Source of the DNA: an uncultured Ignavibacteriaceae bacterium
Lineage (GTDB): Bacteria; Bacteroidota; Ignavibacteria; UBA10030
Assembly (NCBI GenBank): GCA_964480945.1
Contig: CAYZRX010000008.1
Coordinates: 4,572-68,571, forward strand
Direction of reading: 5' to 3'
Length of the DNA stretch: 64,000 bases
The position numbers and the translations under genes are program-made. Positions within the stretch are counted from its first letter, which is position 1. Every line of letters begins with the position of its first letter. The notes beneath the pieces were generated by a model. The model had not been told where the DNA came from. It was given only the letters and a program-made list of their open reading frames with translations, and searched no databases. Of the stretch, positions 9,007 to 47,915 are shown one piece after another.

Positions 9007-9678
9007 ATGGACACCACAAAGGCAGCGCTTCTGGTCGGTGCAAGCGGGCTTGTCGGCGGGCACCTTCTGCAGCTCCTGCTGCATGAACAGCGGTACAAGC
9101 CGGTCGAGGTCCTTGTGCGCAGAAGTCTGTCGATTCGTGATCCTCAATTGAACGAGCACATCATTGATTTTGACCACCTCGACCGGAACGCAGAGCTCTT
9201 CCGTGCGGACGATGTGTTTTGCTGCCTCGGCACCACGATCAGGACCGCGGGCTCGCAGGAGGCCTTTCGAAAGGTCGATTTTACCTATGTCGTGCAAGCT
9301 GCGGCCCTGGCGTCAAAGAATGGGGTGAAGCAGTTTCTTCTCGTTTCGTCGCTCGGGGCAAACCCCCGATCCAGAGCCTTTTACAGCCGCGTGAAGGGTG
9401 AAGTCGAAGAGGCCGTTTCAAAACTTCCGTTTCGTGGCGTGCATATTTTCCGTCCGTCGTTCCTGCTCGGCGAACGGGAAGAAAGGCGCCGGGGCGAGAG
9501 GGTCGCAATTATGCTCGTGAAACTGCTCCAGCCGCTGATGATCGCCGGCTGGAAAAGGCTCCGGCCGATTCACGCAAGGACGGTCGCAGCAGCGATGGTT
9601 CGGGTGGCGGGAATGAACAAGCAGGGCGTCAACATTTTCGAATCGGATCAAATTCAGATCCTGGGATCGTCGCACTAA
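9007..9678 (+). CDS. NAD(P)H-binding oxidoreductase (atypical SDR, YraR/HTATIP2-like)
   Basis: 223 aa with an N-terminal Rossmann motif (ALLVGASGLVGGHLL) and a NAD-dependent epimerase/dehydratase-like fold. Confidence 0.7.
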   Translation: MDTTKAALLVGASGLVGGHLLQLLLHEQRYKPVEVLVRRSLSIRDPQLNEHIIDFDHLDRNAELFRADDVFCCLGTTIRTAGSQEAFRKVDFTYVVQAAALASKNGVKQFLLVSSLGANPRSRAFYSRVKGEVEEAVSKLPFRGVHIFRPSFLLGEREERRRGERVAIMLVKLLQPLMIAGWKRLRPIHARTVAAAMVRVAGMNKQGVNIFESDQIQILGSSH

Positions 9679-9722
9679 ACTCAATTTCACACTTTCTCAC
9701 AGACCATAGGGCCAGAATAACA

Positions 9723-12590: not shown

Positions 12591-14744
12591 ATGACGAAAC
12601 GTTCTCTGTTCCTTTCGTTCACCCTTGTTGTCTTTCTCGCGGTCGGTCTTGCTGATGAGGGGATGTACCCGATCAGCGAGATCCACAAGCTCAACCTGCG
12701 GGCAAGGGGCCTAAAGATCGATCCGAAGGAGCTTTACAACCCGAACGGCGTAAGTCTCATTGATGCGATCGTTCAGCTCAGCGGCTGCACCGGATCGTTC
12801 GTCTCGAAGGATGGCCTCATTCTCACCAATCATCACTGCGCGTTCGGATTTGTCCAGGCCGCCAGCACGGCGGAGAAGGATTATGTGACGGACGGTTTCA
12901 TCGCCTGGAATCGATCCGAGGAGATCCCCGCAAAGGGCCAGACGGTCCGCATTACGGAGTCCTATCGCGATGTCTCCAAACAGGTTCTCAGCGCCGTCAG
13001 TGACAGAATGGAGTTGGCTGAACGGTCCAAGGCCATCGATCGAGCAATGCGTGCGATCGTCGTCGAGACGGAGAAGCGGAACCCCGGCAAGCGCGCCGAG
13101 GTGGCGGAGATGTTCGCCGGCAAGACGTACGTACTCTTTGTGTACACCTATCTGAGGGATGTCCGCCTCGTGTATGTCCCCCCGCGGTCAATCGGAGAAT
13201 TCGGGGGCGAGAACGACAATTGGGTTTGGCCGCGGCATACAGGAGACTTCTCGTTTTTCCGCGCGTACGTCGCTCCGGACGGCTCCCCGGCGGATTATTC
13301 CGCTGACAACGTTCCGTATCACCCGAAGAAGTTCCTCAAGGTAAATCCCTCCGGCGTCGATGAGGGAGACTTCGCCTTCATCCTGGGTTACCCCGGGCGG
13401 ACGTACCGACACAGAACATCCCACTACCTCGCGTACGAGGAGAAGTACCGGATGCCGTACGTCGCGGACCTCTACGAGTGGGAGATCGCCACGATGGAGC
13501 AAATGGGGAAGAACGACCGGGAGATTGCGCTGAAGCACGATGCGCGTATCAAAGGACTGGCGAACACCATGAAGAACTACCGTGGTAAACTGCTCGGTAT
13601 GAAGCGGCTCTCTCTCGTGGACCGTAAGTTTGAAGAGGAAGAAGCTCTGCAGCGGTTCATCGAATCCGACCCCGCTCGAAAGGCACTTTACGGTGCAGTT
13701 CTCGATGAGATCGGCAAGATTTATCAGGAAATGTCCGATCAAGCGGCTTCCGAGCTCGTTCTTGACTACCTTCGCAGGAGTTCGACGATGCTGGGGTACG
13801 GCTTCGCGGTGTACGAATCCACTCTGGAGCTCCAGAAGCCGGACCTGGAGCGGCTCTCCCCCTACACGGAGCGGAATCTCCCCAATACGAAGAAGTACCT
13901 GCCCCGGGCCCTCCAAAACTATTATGAGCCCACTGATAAGGCAATTCTCAAACACATGTTGATGCAGGCCGCCAACCTGCCACAGGCTCAACGCATACCT
14001 GCAATTGATGAAATCATTCAGGGAGGAAACGCCGAGGAGGCGATCGATCGGTTCATTCAAGACGCATTCGCTCAATCGAAACTGAACGACGAACGATTCC
14101 TGATGGATTCCTTCGGGAAGAAGCCAGCCGAAGTCGAGCAAATGGATGACCCGTTCGTTCAGCTCGCCAGGGCACTGTATCCAACCTATCAGAAGTTGCG
14201 TGAGATCCGCCAGCAGCGCAACGGCGCTCTGTCAAAGCTGTCGGCGCTCCTGGTGGATGTCAAGCAGCAATTCCAGAGGACAAGCTTCATTCCCGACGCG
14301 AACAGCACACTGCGCCTGACGTTCGGGCATATCAAAGGCTACTCGCCTCGCGATGCAACCTACTACAAGCCGATCACGACACTCACCGGCGTCATAGAGA
14401 AGACGACGGGCGAATATCCGTACGGCACGCCTCAGAAGGTCCGCGATCTTTACAACGCAAAGGACTTCGGGCGCTACCGCAACGCCAAGCTGAACGATGT
14501 CCCCGTTGCAATTCTGTACGACATGGACACGACCGGCGGGAATTCCGGAAGCCCCGTGCTGAACGCGCGCGGCGAACTTGTGGGGGTAAATTTCGATCGC
14601 GCATTCGAAGCCACGATCAACGACTACGCATGGAGCGAGTCGTACAGCCGATCGATCGCCGTGGATATCCGCTATGTTCTCTGGGTGACGGAGAAAGTCG
14701 GAGGCGTAAGCTACCTTCTGGCAGAGATGGGTCTTCAGCGCTGA
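12591..14744 (+). CDS. S46 family dipeptidyl-peptidase (DPP7/DPP11-like)
   Basis: Signal peptide (MTKRSLFLSFTLVVFLAVGLA). Conserved S46 N-terminal block GCTGSFVSKDGLILTNHHCAFG. Catalytic Ser region GGNSGSPV near the C-terminus. Confidence 0.85.
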   Translation: MTKRSLFLSFTLVVFLAVGLADEGMYPISEIHKLNLRARGLKIDPKELYNPNGVSLIDAIVQLSGCTGSFVSKDGLILTNHHCAFGFVQAASTAEKDYVTDGFIAWNRSEEIPAKGQTVRITESYRDVSKQVLSAVSDRMELAERSKAIDRAMRAIVVETEKRNPGKRAEVAEMFAGKTYVLFVYTYLRDVRLVYVPPRSIGEFGGENDNWVWPRHTGDFSFFRAYVAPDGSPADYSADNVPYHPKKFLKVNPSGVDEGDFAFILGYPGRTYRHRTSHYLAYEEKYRMPYVADLYEWEIATMEQMGKNDREIALKHDARIKGLANTMKNYRGKLLGMKRLSLVDRKFEEEEALQRFIESDPARKALYGAVLDEIGKIYQEMSDQAASELVLDYLRRSSTMLGYGFAVYESTLELQKPDLERLSPYTERNLPNTKKYLPRALQNYYEPTDKAILKHMLMQAANLPQAQRIPAIDEIIQGGNAEEAIDRFIQDAFAQSKLNDERFLMDSFGKKPAEVEQMDDPFVQLARALYPTYQKLREIRQQRNGALSKLSALLVDVKQQFQRTSFIPDANSTLRLTFGHIKGYSPRDATYYKPITTLTGVIEKTTGEYPYGTPQKVRDLYNAKDFGRYRNAKLNDVPVAILYDMDTTGGNSGSPVLNARGELVGVNFDRAFEATINDYAWSESYSRSIAVDIRYVLWVTEKVGGVSYLLAEMGLQR

Positions 14745-31745: not shown

Positions 31746-32393
31746 ATGGGTGCTAGCACAATATTCGACATTGTGAGCTCAACGGTCGTGGGCTCTCTTC
31801 TCCTGCTGATGGCCCTGCGGCTCAATGCGCAGGCGGTGGAGACGAACGCCGTCTACCAGAACAACCTCAACCTTCAGCAAAGCATCGTTGCTTTGGTGGA
31901 TGTGGTCGAATCCGATTTTCGCAAAATCGGCTACTGCAAGGATTTCCACAAGATTCAGCCCCCGAACATTGCCATCGTTTCCGCTGATTCCAATGCCATC
32001 AAGTTCATGACGGACGTTCCGAGCAGCCCGGGTGATATGGGCGACGGCGTGGTGGACACAATCGAGTACTACCTGGGACCGACCAGTGAGCTTGCAAGCA
32101 CGCCCAACCCGGATGATCGATATCTGTACCGCATCGTCGACGGAAACAAGGGGAAAGGCTGGAACCTGGGTGTGACGCAGTTCAGCTTGAGGTACTACGA
32201 TGCGCTTGGCGATACGATTCCTTTCCCGGTCCCGGATCCCAGGCTCATCTACACAATGGAAGTCAATATCTCTCTGGAGAGTCCGGCACCGCTGTTGAAA
32301 TCAGAATACACCTCGGCGGCCGCGGACTCGGCAGACTACAAAGTGTACTGGCGGCAGATTCGCCTGGCATCACGAAATCTTCGAAACCGTTAA
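31746..32393 (+). CDS. Cassette 1 gene B: pseudopilin-like protein (GspJ/PilW-like candidate)
   Basis: 215 aa with an N-terminal hydrophobic helix (IFDIVSSTVVGSLLLLMAL). About 90% identical to its paralog 34597-35244. Starts 9 bp after gene A, so operonic. Confidence 0.6.
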   Translation: MGASTIFDIVSSTVVGSLLLLMALRLNAQAVETNAVYQNNLNLQQSIVALVDVVESDFRKIGYCKDFHKIQPPNIAIVSADSNAIKFMTDVPSSPGDMGDGVVDTIEYYLGPTSELASTPNPDDRYLYRIVDGNKGKGWNLGVTQFSLRYYDALGDTIPFPVPDPRLIYTMEVNISLESPAPLLKSEYTSAAADSADYKVYWRQIRLASRNLRNR

Positions 32394-32408
32394 GGAGGGA
32401 GGCTCGTC

Positions 32409-33623
32409 ATGGGTAAAGCATCGCTTTTGATGGTCATCGGGTTCAGCACTGCTCTGTTGATGATCGGCTCGAACATCTCCAAAGTCTCCAACAGCGCTAT
32501 GGACAATTATCTGTCCTACTACAGATCCAGCATGGCACACGACATTGCCGCCGCAGGGACAAATATGGCCGCCCGAGCGCTCTGGGAGAACATGGCTTGG
32601 AAAGCTGGCTTTGGACGCAAGTCGTTCATGGGCGGAACTTTCCAGTCAACGGTCACCGACCTCGGCATGAACCAGGTCAAAGTTGTAACTACGTCGACGT
32701 ACATGGATGAGACCTCTGTAATCTCCGTGATTCTGCAACCGAGCAGTTTTTCCCGGTTCGGCTACTACAGCGTCCAGGAAGGCAACATCTTCTGGATCAC
32801 CGGCGATACGGTGTGGGGACCGATGCACACGCAGGACAACTTTCATGTCTCCGGCGACCCTGTTTTCATGCAGCGAGTGACATCGCTGAAGGGTCTGCAG
32901 AAGAACAACAAATCCGACCATCCGCAGTTCCTGGGCGGCTACGAGAGCGGGGTCAACGTCTCGCTCCCTTCGAATCTGACTCCACTCGTGAATGCTGCCG
33001 GCAATGGCGGGAAGCTCTTCACCGGCGGCGACTCCGTCTGCATACAGTTTCAGTCGAACGGCAACGTGAAGTGGAAACAGGGCGCGACCAATGGGTGGAA
33101 TACCGACCCACTCTCGAGTTTCGCGCCGAATGGTGTCATCTACGTGCAAGGTGCAAATATGCACGTCTCCGGCACGCTGTCAGGCAGAGTGACCGTCGGG
33201 GCCGGTGGAACAAATGGCAACAGCAAACAAGGCAATATCTACATTGATGATGATGTAAAGCTGAATTCCAATCCACAACAAGGTTCGTCTTCGGACATGC
33301 TGGGACTGGTAGCTGAGAACGATGTGATCATTACGGACAACGTTGCCAACAAGAAAGACGTGGTAATCCAGGCTTCAGTGTTTTCCCGAAGCGGCAGTTT
33401 TGAAGCGGAGAACTACGACAAGCGTGCTGTGTCCGGCACGATCCAGCTTCTGGGAGGAATAATACAAAGCCAAAGGGGCCCCGTCGGGACTTTCAGCGGC
33501 AACCCGCCAAAACTCGTAAGTGGATATCTGAAGAACTATATGTACGACACCCGGTTCCTGTACGATGCGCCACCCTATTTCCCCACCACGGGAAACTTCG
33601 AGATCGTCTCTTGGTTTGAGTAG
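32409..33623 (+). CDS. Cassette 1 gene C: PilX_N/GspK-like N-terminal domain protein with beta-helix-like body (candidate tip/adhesin subunit)
   Basis: 404 aa; N-terminus MGKASLLMVIGFSTALLMIGSNISK...SSMAHDIAAAGTNMAARAL resembles the PilX N-terminal domain architecture (TM helix, then an A..AA.AG helix). Repeated GD..G / I.I.DN segments suggest a parallel beta-helix. Strong RBS AAGGAGGGAGG. Confidence 0.55.
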   Translation: MGKASLLMVIGFSTALLMIGSNISKVSNSAMDNYLSYYRSSMAHDIAAAGTNMAARALWENMAWKAGFGRKSFMGGTFQSTVTDLGMNQVKVVTTSTYMDETSVISVILQPSSFSRFGYYSVQEGNIFWITGDTVWGPMHTQDNFHVSGDPVFMQRVTSLKGLQKNNKSDHPQFLGGYESGVNVSLPSNLTPLVNAAGNGGKLFTGGDSVCIQFQSNGNVKWKQGATNGWNTDPLSSFAPNGVIYVQGANMHVSGTLSGRVTVGAGGTNGNSKQGNIYIDDDVKLNSNPQQGSSSDMLGLVAENDVIITDNVANKKDVVIQASVFSRSGSFEAENYDKRAVSGTIQLLGGIIQSQRGPVGTFSGNPPKLVSGYLKNYMYDTRFLYDAPPYFPTTGNFEIVSWFE

Positions 33624-34596: not shown

Positions 34597-35244
34597 ATGG
34601 GTGCTAGCACAATCTTTGATATCGTCAGTGCGACTGTCGTCGGCTCGCTGCTTCTTCTGATGGCACTGCGGCTCAACGCACAGGCCGTCGAAACGAATGC
34701 CGTGTACCAGAACAATCTGAACCTTCAGCAGAACATCGTGGCGTTAGTCGACGTTGTGGAATCGGACTTCCGGAAGATCGGCTACTGCCGAGACTACACG
34801 AGAATTCAACCGCCGAACAGCGCCATCATCAGCGCCGATTCGAACTCTATCAAGTTCCTCACCGATATTCCGAGCAGCCCGGGTGATATGGGTGATGGCG
34901 TTGTCGACACGGTCTATTACTACCTCGGACCGACCAGCGAGCTTGCGAGCACGCCCAACCCAGACGACCGATATCTGTACCGGATCGTCAATGGAAACAC
35001 TGCGAAGGGCTGGAACCTCGGTGTCACACAGTTTAGCCTGAAGTACTATGATGCGCTGGGGGACACGATCCCATTTCCTATCCCCGACCCCCGATTGATC
35101 TACACGATGGAAATCAACATCTCACTCGAAAGCCCCGCGCCCCTGACGAGGATCGAATATACAACGGCGGCTGCGGACTCGGCGGATTTCCGGGTGTACT
35201 GGCGGCAGATTCGCCTCGCCTCACGCAATTTGCGGAACCGATAA
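34597..35244 (+). CDS. Cassette 2 gene B: pseudopilin-like protein (paralog of 31746-32393)
   Basis: 215 aa, about 90% identical to the cassette 1 homolog. Confidence 0.6.
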   Translation: MGASTIFDIVSATVVGSLLLLMALRLNAQAVETNAVYQNNLNLQQNIVALVDVVESDFRKIGYCRDYTRIQPPNSAIISADSNSIKFLTDIPSSPGDMGDGVVDTVYYYLGPTSELASTPNPDDRYLYRIVNGNTAKGWNLGVTQFSLKYYDALGDTIPFPIPDPRLIYTMEINISLESPAPLTRIEYTTAAADSADFRVYWRQIRLASRNLRNR

Positions 35245-35259
35245 GGAGAGGAGCATACC

Positions 35260-36495
35260 ATGGGTAAAGCGGCGCTTATTATGGTCATGGGATTCAGCAC
35301 GGCACTGCTGATGATCGGGTCCAATATCTCCAAGATCTCGAATCGGGCGATGGACAATTACGTCCACTACTACAATTCCAGCATGGCGCATAACGTCGCC
35401 GCAGCGGGCACCAACATGGCTGCTCGAGCGCTCTGGGAAAATTTCGCCTGGCAAGCCGGGTTCTCCAACAAGAAGTTTGCCGGCGGCACATTCAACACCA
35501 CCGTGACGACCGCCGGTGTCAACCAAATCCGGCTGACAACGACCTCGACATTCCAGGGTGAGACGGCAACCATCTCCGTGCTGCTCCAGCCCAGCAGTTT
35601 CTCACGTTTCGGCTACTACAGCAATATCGAAGGAAACATCTGGTGGATCACGGGGGACACGGTGTGGGGACCCATGCACACGCAGGACAACCTCCGCGTC
35701 TCAGGCGAGCCGGTGTTCATGCAAAGGACCACCTCGCTCAAGAGCATCATCTACGACCACGGGCCTCCCCCAAGGGACAATCCCAAGTTCCTGGGAGGAT
35801 ACGAAACCGGAGTAAATGTGAGCCTGCCGTCCGATCTCACCCCTTTGCTGACAGCGGCGAACAATGGCGGAAAAGTGTTCAACGGTCCGGACTCCGTCTA
35901 TATTGAGTTTCAGTCGAACGGAAACGTGAAATGGAAGCAGGGAGCTGCCTCCCCGTGGAGTGTCGACCCCCTCTCAACGTTTGCCCCGAACGGGGTCATC
36001 TATGCCAACGGGACGAACGTCCACGTCAGCGGGACGATAAGCGGGAGAGCGACCCTCGGTGCTGGAGGAACGACCGGCAACAACAAGCGCGGCAATATCT
36101 TCATCGACGATGATATCTTCTATGCACATGACCCCGGCGCAGGGTCTTCCACCGATCTGTTGGGGCTCGTCGCGGAAAACAATATCCTCATCTCGGACAA
36201 TTCCGCCAATAACAACAATGATGTTACGATTCAAGCATCGTGTTTCTCCCGTTCAGGCGGTTTCACGGCGGAGGATTACGGCAGCCGCGGTGTGGAGGGG
36301 CGAATCAAGCTCCTTGGTGGAATCCAACAGAACAAAAGAGGCGCGGTTGGAACCTTCGACACCGACAGACACGGCGACCCATATCTGAAGAACGGTTATC
36401 TGAAGAATTATCTCTATGATAGTCGGCTTATGTACGACGCACCCCCGTTCTTCCCGACAACCGGCAACTATGAGATCATCTCATGGTTTGAATAA
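35260..36495 (+). CDS. Cassette 2 gene C: PilX_N/GspK-like N-terminal domain protein with beta-helix-like body (paralog of 32409-33623)
   Basis: 411 aa, about 70-75% identical to the cassette 1 homolog. The same N-terminal A..AAAGTNMAARALWEN motif and C-terminal ...EI.SWFE. Confidence 0.55.
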   Translation: MGKAALIMVMGFSTALLMIGSNISKISNRAMDNYVHYYNSSMAHNVAAAGTNMAARALWENFAWQAGFSNKKFAGGTFNTTVTTAGVNQIRLTTTSTFQGETATISVLLQPSSFSRFGYYSNIEGNIWWITGDTVWGPMHTQDNLRVSGEPVFMQRTTSLKSIIYDHGPPPRDNPKFLGGYETGVNVSLPSDLTPLLTAANNGGKVFNGPDSVYIEFQSNGNVKWKQGAASPWSVDPLSTFAPNGVIYANGTNVHVSGTISGRATLGAGGTTGNNKRGNIFIDDDIFYAHDPGAGSSTDLLGLVAENNILISDNSANNNNDVTIQASCFSRSGGFTAEDYGSRGVEGRIKLLGGIQQNKRGAVGTFDTDRHGDPYLKNGYLKNYLYDSRLMYDAPPFFPTTGNYEIISWFE

Positions 36496-36726: not shown

Positions 36727-37866
36727 ATGGCAACCAGTATCTATGATCTCCCGACCCCAGCACTGCTGATCGATCAGGATATCCTGGAGCGCAACCTGAC
36801 GCGCATGCAGGATCGGGCAAATTCTCTCGGCGTCTCCCTCCGTCCGCATATCAAGACGCACAAGTGCATCGAGATCGCCAACCACCAGCTCGAGCTCGGA
36901 GCGCGGGGAATTACGGTATCGACTTTCTACGAGGCCGAACAGTTCGCGGCAAAGGGCTTCAATGACATCACCTGGGCGTTTCCTCTCCCGCCGGTGTACG
37001 CCCCGAAGGTCGTGGAATTGTACGAGAAATCTCGAATCCGCGTTGTTATCGACAGCCCGGAAGCGAAGGCAATCCTTGACGACATCGCGACCACGGCCGG
37101 GCAACGCATCCACGTCTGGCTCAAAGTTGACTGCGGGTACCATCGCGCTGGCGTGAACCCTCGTTCCGAGCTCGCCGAGTCGCTGCTTCAGTCGCTCAGC
37201 GAGTCGGGGACGCTTATTTTCGACGGGATCCTCAGCCATTCGGGCCAGGCCTACCTCGCGCGAAACCGGGCGGAAATCGTGGGCTATGCCGAGCAGGAAC
37301 GCTTCATCATGGTGGAATTTGCAGAGAGAATGAGATCTCAGGGCTGCAAGATACCGACGATCAGTATTGGCTCGACACCGACCATGTGGGTTGCAGAGAG
37401 TCTCAAGGGCATCGACGAGATCCGGCCCGGCAACTATGCTTTCAACGATTACACACAGGTGATGCTGGGAAGCTGCGGTATCGGCGACTGCGCCCTGAGC
37501 GTGCTTGCATCGGTGATCTCCCACCAGCAAGGCGCTTCCCACTTTATCACGGACGCGGGCGCCCTTGCGCTCTCGAAAGACGTCGGACCAACCCACATCC
37601 GAAACGATATGGATATGGGAAGCATTTACGAGGATTACGACCGGAAGCGGCTCCACGCCCACGTCCATGTCCGCAGTCTCTCCCAGGAACACGGCAAGGT
37701 TGTAACGGCGGATACGCAGATTATCGAAGGGAAGTTCAAGATCGGGGACAGGATCCGGGTCCTCGAACACCACTCATGCCTCACCGCCGCGAACTTCGAT
37801 CAATACCACGTCGTGAAGGGGGAAGAGGTCATCGATCGCTGGAAAATTCTGCGGGGAAGAACCTGA
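36727..37866 (+). CDS. Alanine racemase N-terminal domain protein (DSD1 family: D-serine deaminase / D-threonine aldolase-like, PLP-dependent)
   Basis: 379 aa; LLIDQDILERNL...LRPHIKTHKC is the PLP-lysine context of fold-type III DSD1/alr-like enzymes. Confidence 0.75.
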   Translation: MATSIYDLPTPALLIDQDILERNLTRMQDRANSLGVSLRPHIKTHKCIEIANHQLELGARGITVSTFYEAEQFAAKGFNDITWAFPLPPVYAPKVVELYEKSRIRVVIDSPEAKAILDDIATTAGQRIHVWLKVDCGYHRAGVNPRSELAESLLQSLSESGTLIFDGILSHSGQAYLARNRAEIVGYAEQERFIMVEFAERMRSQGCKIPTISIGSTPTMWVAESLKGIDEIRPGNYAFNDYTQVMLGSCGIGDCALSVLASVISHQQGASHFITDAGALALSKDVGPTHIRNDMDMGSIYEDYDRKRLHAHVHVRSLSQEHGKVVTADTQIIEGKFKIGDRIRVLEHHSCLTAANFDQYHVVKGEEVIDRWKILRGRT

Positions 37867-38269
37867 TCCGGTCTCGGATGACGCGCGGCACCACGACCAA
37901 GAGGGTCACCATTGCGCCGAGGAGAAGAGAAACGATCGAGCTCACACGTTCCCGTCTTTGACATTCCCACAATAGCTTCGTACTTTGTCTGCCGTTCAAC
38001 GGCTGCGAGCACTTTTAGCAGCTCTCTCACCCTCTGCTCGCCAGAGGTTCTCTTCGCACGCGTCACCGGTAAGCGCGGTAGTCCGCCGGATGTCCCTATC
38101 ATGTTGACGCAATGTTCGCTTGCTCATGGGGCCAAAAGGAGATCCCCGCCCATTAAAGAGGCGGAGCCCTGACTGACGTGCTTGCACGCCTTCGGGTTGA
38201 TTCAAATTTTCGACAGGTGGAGAAGATAGATTTTTTGAATCTTTAACAATATCTTTCGGGGTCGTCGAA

Positions 38270-39586
38270 GTGCTTGATGGGACAATGAGTTACGAGAATT
38301 TCAACTTCATCTACCTATCGGAGATCGTCGGGCTGCCGGTGTTCAGCCTCAGCAGCGGCAAGAGAATCGGTCGTATCATCGACCTCGCCGCGCGGACCAG
38401 CCACGTCTATCCGAAGATCACGGCCCTCATCACCAAGCTGAGGGACAAGAAGGTTCCCGTCTATATTCCGTGGAACAGCGTCCGGCTTACGGCTTTGAAG
38501 CGGCATGTTTCCGTTGAATACCCGCCGGAGTCCGACTACGGCGACGTCCACTCGATCGAAAACGAGATCCTCATCAAGGAAACGTTTCTGGACAAGCAGA
38601 TCATCTCGACGTCGGGCTACAAGCTTGTCCGCGTGAACGATCTTCAATTGCTCATCGATAATTCGTCCAAGGAGAATCCGAACCTCTGGCTGGTCCATAT
38701 CGATATCGGATTCAAGGGACTGCTGAGACGGCTCGGTTGGGCCAACGTCGCCAACGGCATCTTCCGGTGGGTCGTTTCCCGAGACATCAACGACAAGTTT
38801 GTAGCGTGGAAGCACGTTCAACCGACGACGACGACGAACGTCTACGGCTCCGTCCACCTCAAGACGGATACGTCGAAGCTCTCAACGTTTCACCCGGCCG
38901 ACCTTGCAGACATTCTCGAGGACCTCGGGACCGACGAACGCATCTCGCTCTTTGAATCGTTCAACCCGAGCCTCGCTGCCACGACCCTCCAGGAAATGCC
39001 GATGAATGTCCGCGTCCAGATCGCGGAGACGTTAGAAACGGAAAAGCTGGCAGCCATCATCAACGAGATGCAAATGGACGAGGCGGTCGACTTGCTGGAC
39101 GAGCTCTCCCTCGAAAAGCGCACGGCGGTTTACGCTGTGATGACGACCGAGAAGGTTTCAGAGATCAAGGAGCTTTCCAGGCTCTCCATCTACAGCGTCG
39201 GCAGCATTATGAACACAAACTTCATCACTGCGAAGGCCGCCCAGACTGTGCGGGAGGTGCTCAAAGCGGTCAAAGCCGAGAGCAAGAAGGCGGAGCTGCT
39301 CCACTACGTGTACATCATCGACGATGAGGAACACCTCAAGGGGCTGGTCACGCTGAGGCAACTGTTGATTACGAAGGGGACCACCCCCATGGCCTCAATC
39401 ATGCGCGGCAACCTCATCTCCGTTCGAGTCGACACCGGCATCAAACACGTGGCCCAGTTGTTCTTCAAATACAATTTTCGAGCACTGCCCGTTGTGGACG
39501 AAGAGGAACGGATTCGGGGGATCATCTCCATGCGGGACGCCCTCGAATCGATCTTCCCCGAAATGAAGCAAGCATCCGAGGGATAG
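38270..39586 (+). CDS. Soluble MgtE N-terminal domain + tandem CBS domain protein (no membrane domain), with N-terminal PRC-barrel-like region
   Basis: 438 aa; MgtE_N region (ADLADILEDLGTDERISLFESF...LQEMP) and a CBS pair (IMNTNFITAKAAQTVREV...YVYIIDDEEHLKGLVTLRQLL...ALPVVDEEERIRGIISMRD). The ORF ends without TM helices, 2 bp before the next gene. Confidence 0.75.
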   Translation: MLDGTMSYENFNFIYLSEIVGLPVFSLSSGKRIGRIIDLAARTSHVYPKITALITKLRDKKVPVYIPWNSVRLTALKRHVSVEYPPESDYGDVHSIENEILIKETFLDKQIISTSGYKLVRVNDLQLLIDNSSKENPNLWLVHIDIGFKGLLRRLGWANVANGIFRWVVSRDINDKFVAWKHVQPTTTTNVYGSVHLKTDTSKLSTFHPADLADILEDLGTDERISLFESFNPSLAATTLQEMPMNVRVQIAETLETEKLAAIINEMQMDEAVDLLDELSLEKRTAVYAVMTTEKVSEIKELSRLSIYSVGSIMNTNFITAKAAQTVREVLKAVKAESKKAELLHYVYIIDDEEHLKGLVTLRQLLITKGTTPMASIMRGNLISVRVDTGIKHVAQLFFKYNFRALPVVDEEERIRGIISMRDALESIFPEMKQASEG

Positions 39587-39587
39587 C

Positions 39588-40844
39588 ATGAGGTTGCTTC
39601 AAAGACTGAAAGAACATCCGGCTCTTCGGAATCTGTTGATCTTCCTGAGCGTCGTCGGTCCGGGCATCATCACGGGGAGCGTCGACAACGACGCAGGCGG
39701 AATTACGACGTATTCGGTGGCAGGAGCACTCTACGGCTATAGACTCCTGTGGACGCTGATCCCGTCGTTCGTTGTGTTGCTGGCCGTTCAGGAGATGAAC
39801 GCCCGTATGGGGATTGTCACGGGCAAAGGGCTGGCGGACCTGATTCGAGAGAACTTTGGGGCCCGGATTACGTTCTACATCTTCATTTGCCTGCTCATCG
39901 CGGATGTCGGCAACACGGCGACCGAGTTTGCCGGCGTCGCGGGCAGCATGATGGTGCTCGGTGTCAGCAAGTACGTTTCCGTTCCGCTCGCTGCGATCGC
40001 CGTCTGGATTCTCGTCGTCAAGGGAAACTACAAAATAGCAGAAAAAGTCTTTCTCCTCTTGAGCGTTTTTCTGCTTTCCTACGTTGTCTCGGCTGTCCTG
40101 GCAAAGCCCGACTGGGGAGACATCGGTGTCGCGTTGATCTCGCCGACCATCGAGTGGGATCATACCTATTTCATTACCGTTCTGGGGCTGGTGGGTACGA
40201 CCGTCGCTCCATGGATGCAGTTCTACATGCAATCTTCCGTGATCGAGAAGGGTATCAAGATTGGCGATTACAAGTTCACGGTGTGGGACGTTGCGATCGG
40301 CTGCATCGCAACGATCGTTGTCGCTTTCTTCATCATCGTTGCCTGCGGGGCCACGCTCCACACCAACAATGTCACGATCACGGAAGCCAAGGATGCTGCG
40401 TTCGCGCTCAAGCCGTTTGCCGGAGCCCTCGCATCCGAGGTCTTCGCATTCGGCTTGTTCGCCGCCTCCATCTTCTCCGCCGCGATCCTGCCGCTGGCAA
40501 TGGCTTTTTACATTTGTGAAGCATTCGGATTTGAAGCGGGGATCGACAAGAAATTCGCCGAGGCGCCGCAATTCTACACGCTCTTCACCCTGACCATCGT
40601 CATCAGCGTGACGGTTATTCTTCTTCCTAACGCGCCGCTGATCGCCATTACCATCTGGACCCAAGTGTTGAACGCGATCCTTCTGCCCATTGTCCTCGTT
40701 TGCATGATGATCATCGTGAACAAGACGGAGATCATGGGTGAGTACACGAACAAGCGGTATCAAAACATCATCGGCTGGTCGACGTCGATCCTATTGATCA
40801 TCATGAGCGCCGTCCTAGTAATCTCAGGCTTTGGCCCGGGGTAA
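39588..40844 (+). CDS. NRAMP (SLC11) family transporter with non-canonical metal-site residues (NRMT-like; candidate Mg2+ transporter)
   Basis: 418 aa with about 11 TM helices. TM1 motif DAGG where canonical MntH has DPGN; TM6 motif GTTVAPW where canonical has GA.IMPH, so both the Asn and the Met are lost. Confidence 0.8.
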   Translation: MRLLQRLKEHPALRNLLIFLSVVGPGIITGSVDNDAGGITTYSVAGALYGYRLLWTLIPSFVVLLAVQEMNARMGIVTGKGLADLIRENFGARITFYIFICLLIADVGNTATEFAGVAGSMMVLGVSKYVSVPLAAIAVWILVVKGNYKIAEKVFLLLSVFLLSYVVSAVLAKPDWGDIGVALISPTIEWDHTYFITVLGLVGTTVAPWMQFYMQSSVIEKGIKIGDYKFTVWDVAIGCIATIVVAFFIIVACGATLHTNNVTITEAKDAAFALKPFAGALASEVFAFGLFAASIFSAAILPLAMAFYICEAFGFEAGIDKKFAEAPQFYTLFTLTIVISVTVILLPNAPLIAITIWTQVLNAILLPIVLVCMMIIVNKTEIMGEYTNKRYQNIIGWSTSILLIIMSAVLVISGFGPG

Positions 40845-40902
40845 CAGCGGCCTCCGTCGGCACCAGCACACAGCAAGAGCAACCAGAACAAGAGAGAAAA
40901 CC

Positions 40903-41688
40903 ATGACCTCCCTCGAGAAGAAAATTGTCCTCATCACCGGCGCGAGCAGCGGTATCGGCCTCGCGTGTGCACATGCATTTGCCCAACAAGGCGCCCGGCT
41001 CATTCTCACAGCCCGCCGAAAGCAAAAACTCGATGCTCTCGCAAAAGAGCTGAAGCAAGAGCACGGCACGGAATCGTGTGTCTTCGAGCTTGATGTGCGG
41101 AACCAGTCAGCGGTCCAGACCACTCTTCACAACCTTCCCACGGAATGGCAGGAGATCGAGGTGCTCGTGAACAATGCCGGGCTGAGCCGGGGTCTCAACA
41201 AGCTCCACGAGGGCAAGATCCAAGATTGGGAGGAAATGATTGACACGAATATCAAGGGATTACTCTACGCAACCCACCAGGTCCTCCCAGGGATGGTCGC
41301 AAGGGGCCGGGGGATGATCATCAACATCGGCTCCATCGCCGGGCACGAGGTCTACGTGGGAGGCAACGTGTACTGCGCGACGAAGCATGCCGTCGATGCG
41401 ATTACGCGCGGGTTGCGCTGGGATCTGGTTGACACGCCGATCCGCGTCTGCACGGTCGACCCCGGCCTGGTGGAGACGGAGTTCAGCATGGTGCGGTTCC
41501 GGGGGGACGAGCAGCGAGCGAAAACCGTCTATCAGAATATCACACCTCTGCGACCTGAAGATATCGCCGAGATGGTTGTCTTTTGTGCCACCAGACCGGC
41601 GCACGTCGAGGTGGCTGAAATGATCGTTCTCCCGACGAGTCAGGCCTCCGCCTCTCTCGTTCACAGGACACCGAGCGCGAAACAATAG
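40903..41688 (+). CDS. SDR family NADP-dependent oxidoreductase (YdfG-like)
   Basis: Likely start at the internal Met (MTSLEKKIVLITGASSGIGLA). NNAG and YxxxK motifs (YCATKHAV). Confidence 0.85.
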   Translation: MTSLEKKIVLITGASSGIGLACAHAFAQQGARLILTARRKQKLDALAKELKQEHGTESCVFELDVRNQSAVQTTLHNLPTEWQEIEVLVNNAGLSRGLNKLHEGKIQDWEEMIDTNIKGLLYATHQVLPGMVARGRGMIINIGSIAGHEVYVGGNVYCATKHAVDAITRGLRWDLVDTPIRVCTVDPGLVETEFSMVRFRGDEQRAKTVYQNITPLRPEDIAEMVVFCATRPAHVEVAEMIVLPTSQASASLVHRTPSAKQ

Positions 41689-42562: not shown

Positions 42563-42880
42563 ATGCCAACAATGGAAATTGATGGAAGGACATTTGAAGT
42601 AGATGGCGACGGTTTCTTATCAGATCCTTCTCTTTGGAATGAGGAAGTTGCCCGGTTGATAGCAAGACACGACGGCATTACGGAGATGAGTGACAAACAC
42701 TGGGCGATCGTGAAGTTCATCCGCAAGAACTGGGAGGAAAAGGGGATGGCACCGATGATCCGTTCGATCTGTCAGGTGACTGGAGTGAAGCTCAAGGAGA
42801 TTTATCAGCTTTTCCCCCTTGGTCCTGCACGCGGCGCGTGCCGTGTCGCAGGCCTGCCCAAGCCCGATGGTTGCGTCTAA
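42563..42880 (+). CDS. dsrC: DsrC/TusE family sulfur-relay protein (two-cysteine DsrC type)
   Basis: 105 aa; the C-terminal arm LFPLGPARGACRVAGLPKPDGCV matches the DsrC consensus (LFPxGPAKxACRIAGLPKPTGCV). It has both the penultimate Cys and the Cys 10 residues upstream. Confidence 0.85.
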   Translation: MPTMEIDGRTFEVDGDGFLSDPSLWNEEVARLIARHDGITEMSDKHWAIVKFIRKNWEEKGMAPMIRSICQVTGVKLKEIYQLFPLGPARGACRVAGLPKPDGCV

Positions 42881-42895
42881 GGGAGTCGGATCGGA

Positions 42896-43516
42896 ATGAC
42901 CTGGTACCACTCTCTGGCATCAGCTGCCCTCGTTGTCTGCCTGATAAGCCTGTCGTATCATTTCATCAGACTTCTCAGGTTGGGGCCGCCAAAGGATTTC
43001 TCCGTACGGAGAGGCAACTTGAAACCCGCGATCATCTATTCGTTCCTGGGAGCGATGAACCCGCGGAAGAAGGAATCTGCATACTTGCACCTCCCGACCT
43101 ATGCAGCGGGGCTTTTCTATCACGCCGGGACCTTCACCTCGATCGTCCTTTTCTTTCTGTTCTTTTTCAATTTCCACATTGAGAGATCGTTACGGTGGGG
43201 CATTATCAGTTTGCTGGCGGTATCAGGAGCCTGCGGCATCGGGATCCTCGCGAAGAGAACGGCGGTGAGAAGGCTCCGGCACCTCTCCAACCTCGATGAC
43301 TATGTAGCAAACATCCTCGTGACACTTTTCCAGTTCCTTACCCTTGCTTTGTTGGTGAAGGAAGTATTTGCTCCATTCTATTTCCTCTGCGTCAGCCTCC
43401 TGTTGCTGTATCTCCCGTTCGGGAAGCTGAAACATGCTCTCTATTTCTTCGCCGCGCGGTATCACCTTGGACTGTTCTACGGTTGGCGCGGGGTCTGGCC
43501 TCTCAGAAAGTCGTGA
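42896..43516 (+). CDS. Integral membrane protein, candidate HdrE/DsrM/NarI-like di-haem cytochrome b anchor
   Basis: 206 aa with about five hydrophobic helices and His residues within them (SYHFIRLL, LFYHAGTF, FFNFHIERS, KHALYFFAARYHLG). Sits 10 bp upstream of the HdrD-like gene. The assignment rests on context and topology only. Confidence 0.4.
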   Translation: MTWYHSLASAALVVCLISLSYHFIRLLRLGPPKDFSVRRGNLKPAIIYSFLGAMNPRKKESAYLHLPTYAAGLFYHAGTFTSIVLFFLFFFNFHIERSLRWGIISLLAVSGACGIGILAKRTAVRRLRHLSNLDDYVANILVTLFQFLTLALLVKEVFAPFYFLCVSLLLLYLPFGKLKHALYFFAARYHLGLFYGWRGVWPLRKS

Positions 43517-43525
43517 ACGAACGGT

Positions 43526-44818
43526 ATGGCCAGTCTTTCCACAGAAAAGCTCAGAGCGCTCCAAGTCCTGGCGGAAGTGAAGGACAGCCGGCTGGTATCG
43601 CACCTCAACAGCTGTGTTCACTGTGGATTGTGTGCAGAGAGCTGCATGTACTACGTTGCGACGAACGATGAACGGTTTGCCCCGGCGCTGAAAGTCGACC
43701 TTCTCTCTTCCATTTATCAGCGGTACTACACGTTCGCGGGCAAGCACTTTCCGCTCCTTGGGAACGCACGCGATCTCGATAACTTCACAACGAGCGAAAT
43801 GGTGGATCTCTTCTTCGGCTCCTGCACACTCTGCGGGCGATGCACGACGCATTGCTCCATCGGTGTCGATATCACGTACCTGGTACGAGTAGGAAGGGAG
43901 ATGCTTGCAGCCATGGGACGCGTTCCGGCGAGCCTGCAATCGACCGTCAACGCCGCCCTTCAGACGGGCAACAACATGGCCATCCCAACCGAGGAGTTTA
44001 CGAGCACGCTGTCGTGGCTGGAGGACGAGCTCAAGGATGAGGTGAACGATCCCCAGGCGTCCATACCGCTCAACCAAGTTGGTGCAAACGTCCTCTACAC
44101 ATTGAATCCGCGGGAGCCCAAGTTTTTCCCGCTTTCCATCTCCGCCATGGCGAAGATATTCTATGCCGCCAACGAGAGCTGGACGCTCTCGACGTCGATG
44201 TATGATGTCACCAACTATGCGTACTTCTCCTGCAACCCCAAGGATGCGATCACCATCGCCAAGCGGTTGTACGAGGAGGTCGAAAGAATCGGCGCGAAAC
44301 GCTGCGTGCTTGCGGAATGCGGCCACGGATCGAGAGCCTTTCGCTGGGAAGCGCCAAACTACCTTCAGAAGCGGTTTTCTTTCGAAACCCTGACTTCCGT
44401 CGAACTCCTGGCTGAATACATCCGCGAGGGCCGGATCAAGCTTGACAAAGAAAGAAATCGGGAGGTGATGACGCTGCACGATCCCTGTAACCTCGTGAGA
44501 GAGGGGGGCATCGTTGACGAACAACGATACGTTTTGAAGCACGCAGCGACCACGTTCGTTGAAATGACGCCGCATGGAGTCGACAACTTCTGCTGCGGTG
44601 GGGGCGGCGGCCAGCTCTCGATGAGCGAATACGGCGATCGACGCATGAAGATCGCCGAGATCAAGGCAGACCAGATCCGGAAGACGGGCGCTTCGACGGT
44701 CGTAACGCCTTGCCACAACTGCGTCGACCAGTTGATCCAGATCAATAACAAATTCAAGCTCGGCGTGAACATCAAGACGCTTGCTGAAGTCGTCGCCGAT
44801 GCAATCGTACTAGAATAG
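43526..44818 (+). CDS. HdrD/DsrK/GlpC-like iron-sulfur protein (2x[4Fe-4S] ferredoxin + two CCG domains)
   Basis: Two ferredoxin-like motifs, CVHCGLCAESC and CTLCGRCTTHC. C-terminal CCG domains: CVLAECGHG in the first; NFCCGGGGGQ...PCHNCVDQ in the second. Confidence 0.8.
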   Translation: MASLSTEKLRALQVLAEVKDSRLVSHLNSCVHCGLCAESCMYYVATNDERFAPALKVDLLSSIYQRYYTFAGKHFPLLGNARDLDNFTTSEMVDLFFGSCTLCGRCTTHCSIGVDITYLVRVGREMLAAMGRVPASLQSTVNAALQTGNNMAIPTEEFTSTLSWLEDELKDEVNDPQASIPLNQVGANVLYTLNPREPKFFPLSISAMAKIFYAANESWTLSTSMYDVTNYAYFSCNPKDAITIAKRLYEEVERIGAKRCVLAECGHGSRAFRWEAPNYLQKRFSFETLTSVELLAEYIREGRIKLDKERNREVMTLHDPCNLVREGGIVDEQRYVLKHAATTFVEMTPHGVDNFCCGGGGGQLSMSEYGDRRMKIAEIKADQIRKTGASTVVTPCHNCVDQLIQINNKFKLGVNIKTLAEVVADAIVLE

Positions 44819-44857
44819 TTCATCGTCAACCCATCAGACACACTGCGAATACGAGCC

Positions 44858-46021
44858 ATGAGTGCATTAGTCTACCTTGACAACTCCGCGACAACGTTTC
44901 CCAAGCCCGAGGCGGTGTACGACTTCATGAATAGTTTCTACCGCAAGCACGGTGTTAACCCGGGTCGATCGGGATTTGATGCCGCACTGGAAGCGGAAGA
45001 GATCGTGATGAACACACGGAAACTGCTGGCAGACTTCTTCCATGCCGAGGGTGACCCAAACAGGTTGACCTTCAGTTATAACGCCAGCGATTCGCTGAAC
45101 ATGATCATCCAGGGCCTGGCAGAGAAGGGCGATCACGTCGTCACGACCATGCTGGAACATAATTCGGTCCTGCGTCCGCTCCATCACCTTCAGCTGAACG
45201 GCCTCGTCGAAGTCACCCATGTTCCATTTGACGACCATGGATATGTTCACCCCGACGACATCAAGCATGCCCTCCGCAAGAACACCAAGATGGTGGTGGT
45301 CAACCATTGCTCCAATGTCATTGGTACCATCCAGCCGCTTGCCGAGATCGGCAAGATCTGTAAACAGGCCGGCGTCTTTTTCATCGTCGATACCACTCAG
45401 AGCGCCGGGACCGTGCCGATCGACATGCAAGCGATGGGGATCGATGTGGTTGCCTTCACCGGGCACAAATGCCTCATGGGACCAACCGGCATCGGCGGCT
45501 CGTATGTCATGGAGAACGTACCGGTGAAGTACACCCGGTTCGGCGGCACGGGAGTACGTTCTGCGCAACAGACCCATCTCGAAGAATTTCCCTACCGCCT
45601 GGAGTGCGGCACGCTCAACCTGCTCGGCGTCGCAGGCTTGAACGCAGGAGTGAAGTGGGTGCTCGAGAACGGGGTAGATCGTTTGCACGCCAAGGAGATG
45701 GCGTTGTGGGACAAACTCCGGAAGCACCTTCAGGCCATCGAGAACGTCAAGACGTATTGTGCGGAAAGCACGCAAAATCATAATGCGGTACTGTGCTTCA
45801 ACATCAAGAACTTCGAAGCCGGAGACGTCGGCACCATGCTCGACGTCGATCATAACATCGCCTGCCGCACGGGTCTGCACTGCGCGCCGAAAGTGCATGT
45901 AGGGCTGGGCACCGACAAAATTCACGGCACGGTGCGACTCAGCATTGGCGCCTTCAACACCGAGGAACACATCGACAAAGCCGTTGAGGCGGTGAAGGAA
46001 ATAGCCGAGATCAGAAAGTAA
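44858..46021 (+). CDS. Cysteine desulfurase family protein (class V aminotransferase fold, PLP)
   Basis: 387 aa; N-terminus VYLDNSATTFPKPEAVYDFM and PLP-lysine region VDVVAFTGHKCLMGPTGIGG. Resembles the NifS/CsdA-related 'cysteine desulfurase family protein' subfamily. Confidence 0.8.
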   Translation: MSALVYLDNSATTFPKPEAVYDFMNSFYRKHGVNPGRSGFDAALEAEEIVMNTRKLLADFFHAEGDPNRLTFSYNASDSLNMIIQGLAEKGDHVVTTMLEHNSVLRPLHHLQLNGLVEVTHVPFDDHGYVHPDDIKHALRKNTKMVVVNHCSNVIGTIQPLAEIGKICKQAGVFFIVDTTQSAGTVPIDMQAMGIDVVAFTGHKCLMGPTGIGGSYVMENVPVKYTRFGGTGVRSAQQTHLEEFPYRLECGTLNLLGVAGLNAGVKWVLENGVDRLHAKEMALWDKLRKHLQAIENVKTYCAESTQNHNAVLCFNIKNFEAGDVGTMLDVDHNIACRTGLHCAPKVHVGLGTDKIHGTVRLSIGAFNTEEHIDKAVEAVKEIAEIRK

Positions 46022-46403
46022 TCCTCTCTAGATGAGCACTACCTCCTCCACAGGGGAAATTCTCGGTCTGCGCTTGGGTAATCCATCGTCTTGCACGAAT
46101 GGGTGAATCTCGACGTTTGGGCCAGCCTGCGAAGTCCTCAACGACAAAACGCTTCCCATTAAGCTCAGGATGTCTTAACTTCCCTCCTGCCGGGACTCGT
46201 TGATCCCGGACCCGGACAGCCTGCTTCGAGAGGCTGTTCCATCCAGCTTCACCCTTTTCGTCTTCGGCAATTTGAAAGCGCTGCCGTACCAGCCGTCATC
46301 GTTCGCAATGGCCGCTGATTGCAGATTGGAGGGGAGAACAAGTTCGCTGAGAGCGGGGTTTATGATTGAAGAATAACGGGGATCGATAGAAGAAGGAGTT
46401 GAT

Positions 46404-47915
46404 ATGTCAGTCGCGAAAGTAGCGCCGGAACGTCCTCAGCGCGAGGATCTTGAAGACTATTTTGGTCCGTTCCGCCAGCATATTGTCGGACACCATTATC
46501 CTGTCCGAACGCCTTATGGAGAGAAGGAGTTAGTCTACGCCGACTGGATTGCCAGCGGACGTTTGTATCGCCCGATCGAGGAACGGCTGCTCAGCGAGTT
46601 CGGACCGCTGGTCGGGAACACGCACTCCGAGTCGAGCAGTACCGGCTCCGCAATGACCCACGCCTACCACCTCGCACACCAGATTATCAAGAGGCACGTC
46701 CACGCAGGTCCGCAGGACGCGCTCCTCTTCGCCGGATTTGGAATGACCGCTGCGGTCACGAAGCTACAGCGTCTGCTCGGCCTCAAAGTTCCCGAACAAT
46801 TCAAGGACTACTTCACGCTCCCTGAAGAGCTTCGGCCGGTTGTTTTCGTGACCCATATGGAGCACCACTCCAATCAGACAACGTGGTATGAGACTCTCGC
46901 CGACGTTCACGTGATCAAGCCCGATGCCAATGGGTTGATTGATATCGATGATCTCTACGCCCTGCTCGGCCGGTACAAAGACAGAAAGTTGAAGATCGGG
47001 TCCTTCATCGCCTGCTCCAATGTAACGGGCATTCAGACACCGTACCATCAGCTCGCGCGCATCATGCATGAGCACGGGGGGATTTGTTTCATCGACTTCG
47101 CAGCCTCCGCCCCCTATGTCGATATTGACATGCATCCCGCCAATCCTCTCGAGCGCCTCGATGCCATCACGTTCTCGCCGCATAAGTTTCTCGGCGGACC
47201 CGGAGCATCGGGAGTACTCGTGTTTGACTCGAGCCTCTATACGCTCAAATCGCCGGAGCAGCCGGGAGGCGGCACCGTGCTCTGGACGAACCCCTGGGGC
47301 GAGTATCGGTTTTTCCCAGACATCGAAGTACGCGAGGATGGCGGGACACCTGGGTTTCTCCAAGCGATTCGGGCGGCGATGGCTGTCGAGCTGAAAGAAG
47401 AGATGGATCCGCAGAAGATGCTGGAGCGGGAACACCGATCGGTTTTGAAGACTCTCCGTGGGCTGCGCGAGATTCCCGGCCTCACGGTCCTCGCTGACAA
47501 CATCGAAGACCGGCTCGGCGCCATTTCGCTCTATCTCGAGAACATTCACTACAATCTTGTCGTGAAGCTGTTGAACGACCGGTTCGGGATTCAGACGCGC
47601 GGAGGGTGCTCGTGTGCCGGGACGTATGGACATTACCTGCTTCATGTCGACAAGTACGCATCGAAACGGATCACGGATAAGATCGATGAGGGGGATCTTT
47701 CGATCAAGCCGGGATGGGTGCGCCTCTCGCTTCATCCAACGACGACGGATGAGGAGATCGACTACATTCTTGATGCTGTGCGCGAGATCGGACGAAACGC
47801 GAAGCAGTGGGAGCGTGACTACACCTACGATCCTCACACCAACGAGTACACACACAAGCTCGATCGAGGCGAGCTACGACAGAAGGTTCAGGGGTGGTTC
47901 AGGTTCGAGTCTTAA
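46404..47915 (+). CDS. Aminotransferase class V-fold PLP-dependent enzyme (about 500-aa cysteine desulfurase/selenocysteine lyase-like)
   Basis: 503 aa; PLP-lysine motif ITFSPHKFLGGPGASGVLVFD, then a longer C-terminal extension than NifS-like proteins have. Confidence 0.7.
   Translation: MSVAKVAPERPQREDLEDYFGPFRQHIVGHHYPVRTPYGEKELVYADWIASGRLYRPIEERLLSEFGPLVGNTHSESSSTGSAMTHAYHLAHQIIKRHVHAGPQDALLFAGFGMTAAVTKLQRLLGLKVPEQFKDYFTLPEELRPVVFVTHMEHHSNQTTWYETLADVHVIKPDANGLIDIDDLYALLGRYKDRKLKIGSFIACSNVTGIQTPYHQLARIMHEHGGICFIDFAASAPYVDIDMHPANPLERLDAITFSPHKFLGGPGASGVLVFDSSLYTLKSPEQPGGGTVLWTNPWGEYRFFPDIEVREDGGTPGFLQAIRAAMAVELKEEMDPQKMLEREHRSVLKTLRGLREIPGLTVLADNIEDRLGAISLYLENIHYNLVVKLLNDRFGIQTRGGCSCAGTYGHYLLHVDKYASKRITDKIDEGDLSIKPGWVRLSLHPTTTDEEIDYILDAVREIGRNAKQWERDYTYDPHTNEYTHKLDRGELRQKVQGWFRFES

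Follow-up and report, generated by a model that had tools for sequence, protein, structure and literature searches.

We analyzed a two-gene locus in a 64,000-nt stretch of DNA (hereafter, the window) from an uncultured Ignavibacteriaceae bacterium (contig CAYZRX010000008.1, positions 4,572 to 68,571, forward strand). The locus pairs a poreless relative of the cytosolic half of the Mg2+ channel MgtE (ORF A) with an Nramp-related Mg2+ transporter (NRMT; ORF B). On balance, we favor a model in which the two open reading frames (ORFs) form an operon for the uptake of Mg2+ (and probably Mn2+) and in which ORF A would act as an MgtE-style sensor that restrains the NRMT in trans, providing feedback. 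The pairing has been known since 2014, when Shin et al. made the same feedback proposal (Shin, Wakeman, Winkler et al., 2014 PLoS Genet, PMC4072509). Three modest points are new: a double-barrel module in the sensor, the presence of this module in some complete MgtE channels, and the confinement of M-boxes to firmicute loci among those tested.

The sensor and NRMT genes form a conserved pair

The two co-directional ORFs occupy 38270–40844 of the window, where a preliminary description of the sequence had placed them. ORF A (38285–39586, plus strand) encodes a soluble MgtE-like sensor of 433 amino acids in which Pfam recognizes PRC, MgtE_N and two CBS domains. ORF B (39588–40844, plus strand) encodes the 418-residue NRMT, identified by its matches to Pfam Nramp and to EleNRMT from Eggerthella lenta. 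An alternative GTG start of ORF A lies at 38270 (plus strand); close homologues are 431–433 residues long, and the ATG at 38285 is therefore the most likely start. The ORF A stop codon ends at 39586, leaving a spacer of 1 nt before the ORF B ATG, one nucleotide less than the 2 bp of the preliminary description. A GAGGGA sequence sits 8 nt 5′ of this ATG. Co-transcription and translational coupling of the two genes are very likely.

A scan with an NRMT alignment, using one genome per GTDB species, returned at least 576 relatives, of which the best 80 loci were kept. Their NRMTs are 63–82% identical to ORF B, a range that places more distant proteins such as EleNRMT (45%) outside the sample. The loci come from Ignavibacteriota, Bacteroidales, Omnitrophota, Spirochaetota, Acidobacteriota, Firmicutes (Clostridia, Alicyclobacillus), Verrucomicrobiota and Fibrobacteria. 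All their ORFs were examined by hmmsearch with domain profiles, and three loci with too little upstream DNA were set aside. The sensor gene lies directly upstream of the NRMT gene, on the same strand, in 76 of the 77 assessable loci, spanning at least eight phyla, and the two genes are in most cases separated by −4 to +19 nt, counted from sensor stop to NRMT start. In 74 of the 76 paired loci the sensor is a single ORF with the middle barrel, MgtE_N and CBS domains; the exceptions are a frameshifted copy (L062) and an ORF of only 275 residues (L080). Thus, the pairing surmised in the preliminary description is real and almost without exception in the surveyed clade. Pairwise identities of sensors and NRMTs are correlated (r = 0.74), with means of 48% for the sensor and 71% for the NRMT, so that the sensor diverges faster. 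One Bacteroidales metagenome-assembled genome (MAG) carries two complete sensor-NRMT pairs, convergent and adjoining (L044, 4260–10145), a local duplication of the whole operon.

ORF B has the metal site of an NRMT

By its sequence and by every binding-site residue, ORF B is a clear NRMT, a member of the SLC11 family with the LeuT fold. It covers positions 1–356 of the 357-position Pfam Nramp profile (PF01566, E = 9e-94). Its best match among solved structures is EleNRMT (7qia; E = 4.9e-108, 365 bits, full length); MntH/NRAMP structures all score at or below 105 bits (best ~1e-29), and the NCBIfam MntH model gives 143 bits, under its cut-off of 430. The metal-site motif of transmembrane helix 1 (TM1), N34-D35-A36-G37-G38 (39687–39701, plus strand), aligns with D55 and G58 of EleNRMT, and the TM6 motif, G203-T204-T205-V206-A207-P208-W209 (40194–40214, plus strand), aligns with T224, A227 and W229; the EleNRMT counterparts in the pairwise alignment are NDAGG and GTTIAPW. 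Hence, DxxG on α1 replaces DPGN and TxxA on α6 replaces AxxM, with loss of the Asn and Met of the transition-metal site, bearing out the preliminary description, which had read DAGG in place of DPGN and T..A-P-W in place of A..M-P-H and had assigned the transporter to the NRMT type on these grounds. The motifs are nearly fixed in related NRMTs (NDAGG in 79/81, GTT[IV]APWM in 80/81) and conform to the NRMT consensus DxxG-TxxA/T (Ramanadane et al., 2022 eLife, PMC8806188). Q359 and E113 of ORF B correspond to EleNRMT Q379 on α10 and E133 on α3, both of which are kept.

In α6b, ORF B reads APWMQFYMQS where DraNramp has (M/A)PHVIYLHS; the first proton-pathway histidine is replaced by W209 and the second by Met. 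Both α6b histidines are also replaced in EleNRMT, in which transport of Mg2+ and Mn2+ is not coupled to protons and T224 is required for Mg2+ but not Mn2+ transport (PMC8806188). Because ORF B shares the site residues of EleNRMT and has lost the α6b histidines, uncoupled Mg2+/Mn2+ transport is to be expected of it, and homology predicts proton-independent import of hydrated Mg2+. The TM1 D/G and TM6 T/A residues are identical in the two proteins (EleNRMT structures 7qia, 7qic, 7qji and 7qjj). However, their overall identity is only ~45%, the second α6b histidine is Asn in EleNRMT but Met in ORF B, and EleNRMT was characterized alone, as a monomer, in a paper that makes no mention of a partner protein.

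ORF A resembles the cytosolic half of MgtE and lacks a pore

The C-terminal half of ORF A is the cytosolic half of MgtE. Pfam matches comprise MgtE_N (PF03448, 3e-21), two CBS domains (3e-22) and a PRC barrel (matched over residues 12–72), and residues 204–431 align at about E = 1e-30 with the crystal structures 2oux and 2yvy of the MgtE cytosolic domain. The MgtE_N helical domain spans residues 196–299 (38870–39181, plus strand) and the CBS pair residues 305–423 (39197–39553, plus strand). The five-helix pore domain of MgtE (PF01769; motifs PX6GN and P(D/A)X4PX6D) was not found in ORF A by Pfam, and the protein ends 11 residues after the second CBS domain (tail FPEMKQASEG); the chain stops within the equivalent of the MgtE plug helix, after ~8 plug-helix residues. 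The MgtE equivalog model TIGR00400 scores 134 bits, short of its cut-off of 233, with the match confined to profile positions 25–251 of 450. ORF A cannot be a channel on its own. At least 1875 homologues of 431–433 residues exist. The preliminary description had called the upstream protein essentially MgtE_N plus a CBS pair without a pore; the domains and the missing pore stand, but "essentially" does not, because an N-terminal module of ~195 residues had been overlooked.

An AlphaFold2 (AF2) model of ORF A, built from 74 diverse sequences, has a mean predicted local distance difference test score (pLDDT) of 83. Its C-terminal 230 residues superimpose on the Mg2+-bound MgtE cytosolic domain 2yvy with a TM-score (TMt) of 0.83 and a root-mean-square deviation of 2.1 Å. 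ORF A thus has the MgtE_N and CBS-pair architecture and fold in common with Thermus thermophilus MgtE (TtMgtE; 2yvx, 2yvy, 2zy9, 5x9h) but differs from it in lacking the transmembrane domain PF01769 and in carrying the extra N-terminal PRC module. D265, D269 and D418 of ORF A align with TtMgtE D91, D95 and D247 and are invariant among close homologues (alignment A1); in wider alignments of 74–100 sequences, D269 is nearly invariant but D265 is not. The three TtMgtE aspartates are reported to be Mg2+ ligands (Hattori et al. 2007/2009).

The cytosolic domain of MgtE senses ATP as well as Mg2+ (PMC5529423). Y341, R358 and F398 of ORF A retain the ATP-site residues Y170, R187 and F227 of TtMgtE. 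Because the site is kept only in part, nucleotide binding by ORF A is uncertain.

An N-terminal module with two predicted barrels is the most conserved part of the sensor

Residues 1–195 of ORF A are a conserved extra module rather than a linker. PRC-barrel domain 1 comprises residues 6–77 (38300–38515, plus strand; PF05239, 24.6–26.6 bits, cut-off 21.2) and is modeled by AF2 as a β-barrel with pLDDT 80–92. Residues 94–185 (38564–38839, plus strand) are predicted to form a second small β-barrel with an inserted helical hairpin, in which the strand order repeats that of domain 1; with the 74 diverse sequences this region has pLDDT 81–91, whereas with 24 close homologues residues 81–194 fall below 50. 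We found no Pfam match for the second barrel at E ≤ 10, and hhalign aligned only 14 columns of it with domain 1 (PVYIPWNSVR vs DKFVAWKHVQ). We therefore call this region PRC-like, on the strength of its modeled topology.

The block of residues 95–152 (EILLKKTFLDKQIISTSGYKLVRVNDLQLLID...LWLVHIDIGFKGLLRRLGW) is the most conserved stretch of ORF A in an alignment of the 24 close homologues. Across 75 sensors drawn from many phyla, residues 100–152 share on average 62.5% identity between pairs, compared with 55% in MgtE_N and 43% in the CBS pair. The second-barrel block also holds most of the invariant columns of ORF A in the alignments of 74–100 sequences, which reach down to ~26% identity: D103, Q105, D119, G142, R148 and W175 are invariant, and D140 is nearly so.

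A search with residues 1–200 against 1.84 billion representative proteins yielded 778 clusters at E ≤ 1e-3. In nearly all of them, the module stands at the N-terminus of proteins of 415–450 residues. Four matches of ~600 residues (P0294, P0317, P0333, P0369) combine the module, MgtE_N and the CBS pair with the MgtE pore PF01769; in two others of similar length (P0366, P0373) PF01769 stays below threshold. Because of these four proteins, a subclass of complete MgtE channels carries the PRC module, which is thus not specific to NRMT partners. The module of these long channels is ~33–34% identical to that of ORF A; they keep the pore, whereas ORF A is poreless and paired with an NRMT, so that the soluble sensor looks like a long MgtE channel minus its pore. 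We found no paper in the searchable literature on PRC barrels together with MgtE or on a long MgtE subclass.

Since conservation of the sensor peaks in the barrel module and the long MgtE channels have this module too, ligand sensing or coupling may occur there, which is speculation. A broader suggestion, rather doubtful at present, is that the sensor might have its effector, or a further site for ligand binding, in the barrel module instead of the MgtE-like half. The PRC-MgtE_N-CBS cassette could then be a portable cytosolic Mg2+ gate for two unrelated membrane folds, serving the MgtE pore in cis and the LeuT-fold NRMT in trans.

Possible control of the NRMT by its partner

In the model we favor, ORF A would dimerize through its CBS pairs and bind cytosolic Mg2+ at its acidic N-domain/CBS-pair interface (D265, D269, D418); it might also bind an adenine nucleotide. 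The compact, Mg2+-bound form would dock on the NRMT and reduce transport, and the outcome would be post-translational feedback on Mg2+ uptake. Because there is no M-box in this lineage, the partner protein would be its main Mg2+-responsive control.

The pairing and the feedback idea are already in print. According to Shin et al. (PMC4072509), most NrmT genes neighbor a gene encoding an MgtE cytoplasmic-domain homologue, for which the authors proposed a role in "cytoplasmic feedback regulation of transport". The window locus has the gene order, transporter clade and proposed feedback role of the operons described there. An M-box accompanies many NrmT operons but not all: it is absent from the Acidobacterium capsulatum pair (Acp2976-2977), which has the partner, as it is from the window, and present in Clostridium acetobutylicum (Ca_c0685), where the partner gene is split in two, unlike the single 433-residue protein of the window. 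Shin et al. refer to the partner as "small", and the passages considered here do not mention the ~195-residue module with its PRC barrel and predicted second barrel. We found no later literature on the partner's function.

A link of the operon to Mg2+ is provided by M-boxes in front of the sensor gene, which occur in seven firmicute loci (L014, L021, L026 from Clostridium ljungdahlii, L057, L070, L077, L078; 97–154 bits, Rfam gathering thresholds); the NRMTs of these loci are 64–72% identical to ORF B. No M-box was found at the same thresholds in the close relatives L001, L081 and L084. In one of the seven, Clostridium manihotivorum (L021), the M-box/sensor/NRMT operon is followed a few kb downstream by a second, MntH-like Nramp gene (9287–10600), which scores 112 bits with the NRMT profile, and by another M-box (12720–12876).

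Several observations weigh against gating of the NRMT by ORF A. Little of the plug helix, the gating transmitter of MgtE, remains in the sensor, and of the five side chains that contact ATP, two are altered (TtMgtE D188 to Q359 and N203 to R374). EleNRMT functions alone in liposomes. One NRMT locus, from a Spirochaetota MAG (L007, 4483–7269; NRMT 71% identical), has no adjacent sensor; its upstream genes are divergent and unrelated (TPR-like and amidohydrolase-like). In the work of Shin et al. (PMC4072509), co-expression of the A. capsulatum partner, the only published test, left rescue by the transporter unchanged, and the transporter itself rescued an Mn2+-uptake mutant fully but an Mg2+ mutant weakly, only at millimolar Mg2+.

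In one rival reading, the partner does not gate the NRMT; it would instead buffer or chaperone metal in the cytosol, or act as a sensor with another output, with adjacency serving co-expression only. Shin et al. themselves raised "metal chaperone activity" as an alternative and found co-expression to be without effect. This view is also consistent with conservation being highest in the N-terminal barrel module instead of the MgtE-like half, and with the module being no NRMT-specific docking device because full MgtE channels have it too. However, the nearly universal adjacency, tight or overlapping spacing and fixed gene order over at least eight phyla are typical of subunits of one complex, and domain-model scans detected no DNA-binding or enzymatic output domain in ORF A. 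We consider a non-gating partner unlikely, if by no means far-fetched.

Alternatively, in the lineage without M-boxes the pair could handle Mn2+ rather than Mg2+, with the transporter importing and the partner sensing Mn2+. The A. capsulatum orthologue, which has the partner and no M-box, rescued the Mn2+-uptake mutant fully and the Mg2+ mutant only weakly, as described above; Mn2+ is also transported by EleNRMT (PMC8806188), and the window, L001, L081 and L084 all lack an M-box. Yet ORF B matches EleNRMT at all binding-site residues, among them T204, the counterpart of T224, and NRMTs closely similar to ORF B sit behind the firmicute M-boxes. A pair devoted to Mn2+ seems distinctly improbable, and we retain feedback control of Mg2+ uptake by ORF A as the preferred model.

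The upstream interval contains a conserved block next to the sensor gene

The interval before the sensor gene divides into two parts. The first, 37867–38224, follows a D-Ser-dehydratase-like gene and is a non-conserved spacer with no detectable riboswitch or gene. The second is a conserved block of ~60 nt directly 5′ of the sensor start (38225–38284, plus strand; ATAGATTTTTTGAATCTT..TATCTTTC) that probably comprises the promoter together with a short 5′ untranslated region (UTR); no other block is shared by the window, L081 and L084. In L081 (sensor 88% identical), gene order is the same and the gap is 414 nt, but the spacer has diverged outside the last ~60 nt; L084 (sensor 76% identical) keeps the block before its ATG. 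Within the block, TATCTTT[CG] resembles TAnnTTTG, the −7 element of Bacteroidota promoters. A σ70 promoter scan upstream of the sensor gene found nothing, a scan that is uninformative for promoters of the Bacteroidota type.

The preliminary description had suggested an M-box-type riboswitch in the ~400-bp leader. An Rfam scan of 37700–38400 at E ≤ 10 returned no M-box (RF00380) and three chance-level matches, none at E < 1, although the same tool finds the seven firmicute M-boxes. The minimum free energy of the 418-nt interval is no better than that of shuffled sequences (z = +0.74). No gene is detectable in 37867–38284, in line with the preliminary description, and nothing marks the interval as a functional leader. 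We also rejected the possibility that the spacer hides a gene or the remnant of a transposase; the three ORFs there have no Pfam match at E ≤ 10, Pfam being the only search made. A terminator-like hairpin of 8 pairs (6 of them G-C) followed by a T-run lies within the spacer on the minus strand (38166–38134); no minus-strand gene ends at it.

A regulatory leader, whether an M-box, another riboswitch or a different Mg2+-responsive element, would fit the similar interval length in L081 and the M-boxes at the same position in firmicute orthologues, but is very hard to reconcile with the lack of any Rfam family or stable fold, the unconserved sequence outside the last ~60 nt and the location of the T-run hairpin on the opposite strand. 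Most simply, the interval comprises a spacer without function and, close to the gene, a promoter with a short 5′ UTR.

Genes around the operon

Downstream of the NRMT gene, a short-chain dehydrogenase ORF (40831–41688) has a listed TTG start that overlaps the NRMT 3′ end. Its relatives in L081 and L084 are 257–261 residues long, and the real start is probably an internal Met (MTSLEKK), with which ~60 nt would separate the two genes. Further downstream, a sulfur-relay-like cluster (42563–47915) begins with a DsrC-like protein (2.8e-35), continues with a 206-residue membrane protein without a Pfam match and an HdrD/DsrK-like Fe-S protein with a CCG domain, and ends with two class-V aminotransferase (cysteine-desulfurase-like) genes.

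Upstream, a two-gene cassette is present as a tandem duplicate (31746–33623 and 34597–36495). Each copy consists of a 215-residue ORF followed by an ORF of 404 or 411 residues with a weak DUF4900 match; the 215-residue ORFs have hydrophobic N-termini and a pilin- or pseudopilin-like appearance. Genes of this cassette also lie upstream of the sensor-NRMT operon in L081 and L082.

Implications for Mg2+ homeostasis

The locus adds no new kind of system and rediscovers a published association. The near-obligatory pairing over at least eight phyla and the strongly conserved, predicted double PRC-barrel module, shared with some MgtE channels, offer starting points for work on the partner's role. In lineages like that of the window, protein-level control may be the only Mg2+-responsive layer, as M-boxes occur only in firmicute loci among those tested. 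If the partner gates the NRMT in trans, a regulatory domain from one Mg2+ channel family would have been recruited as an independent subunit of a transporter with an unrelated fold.

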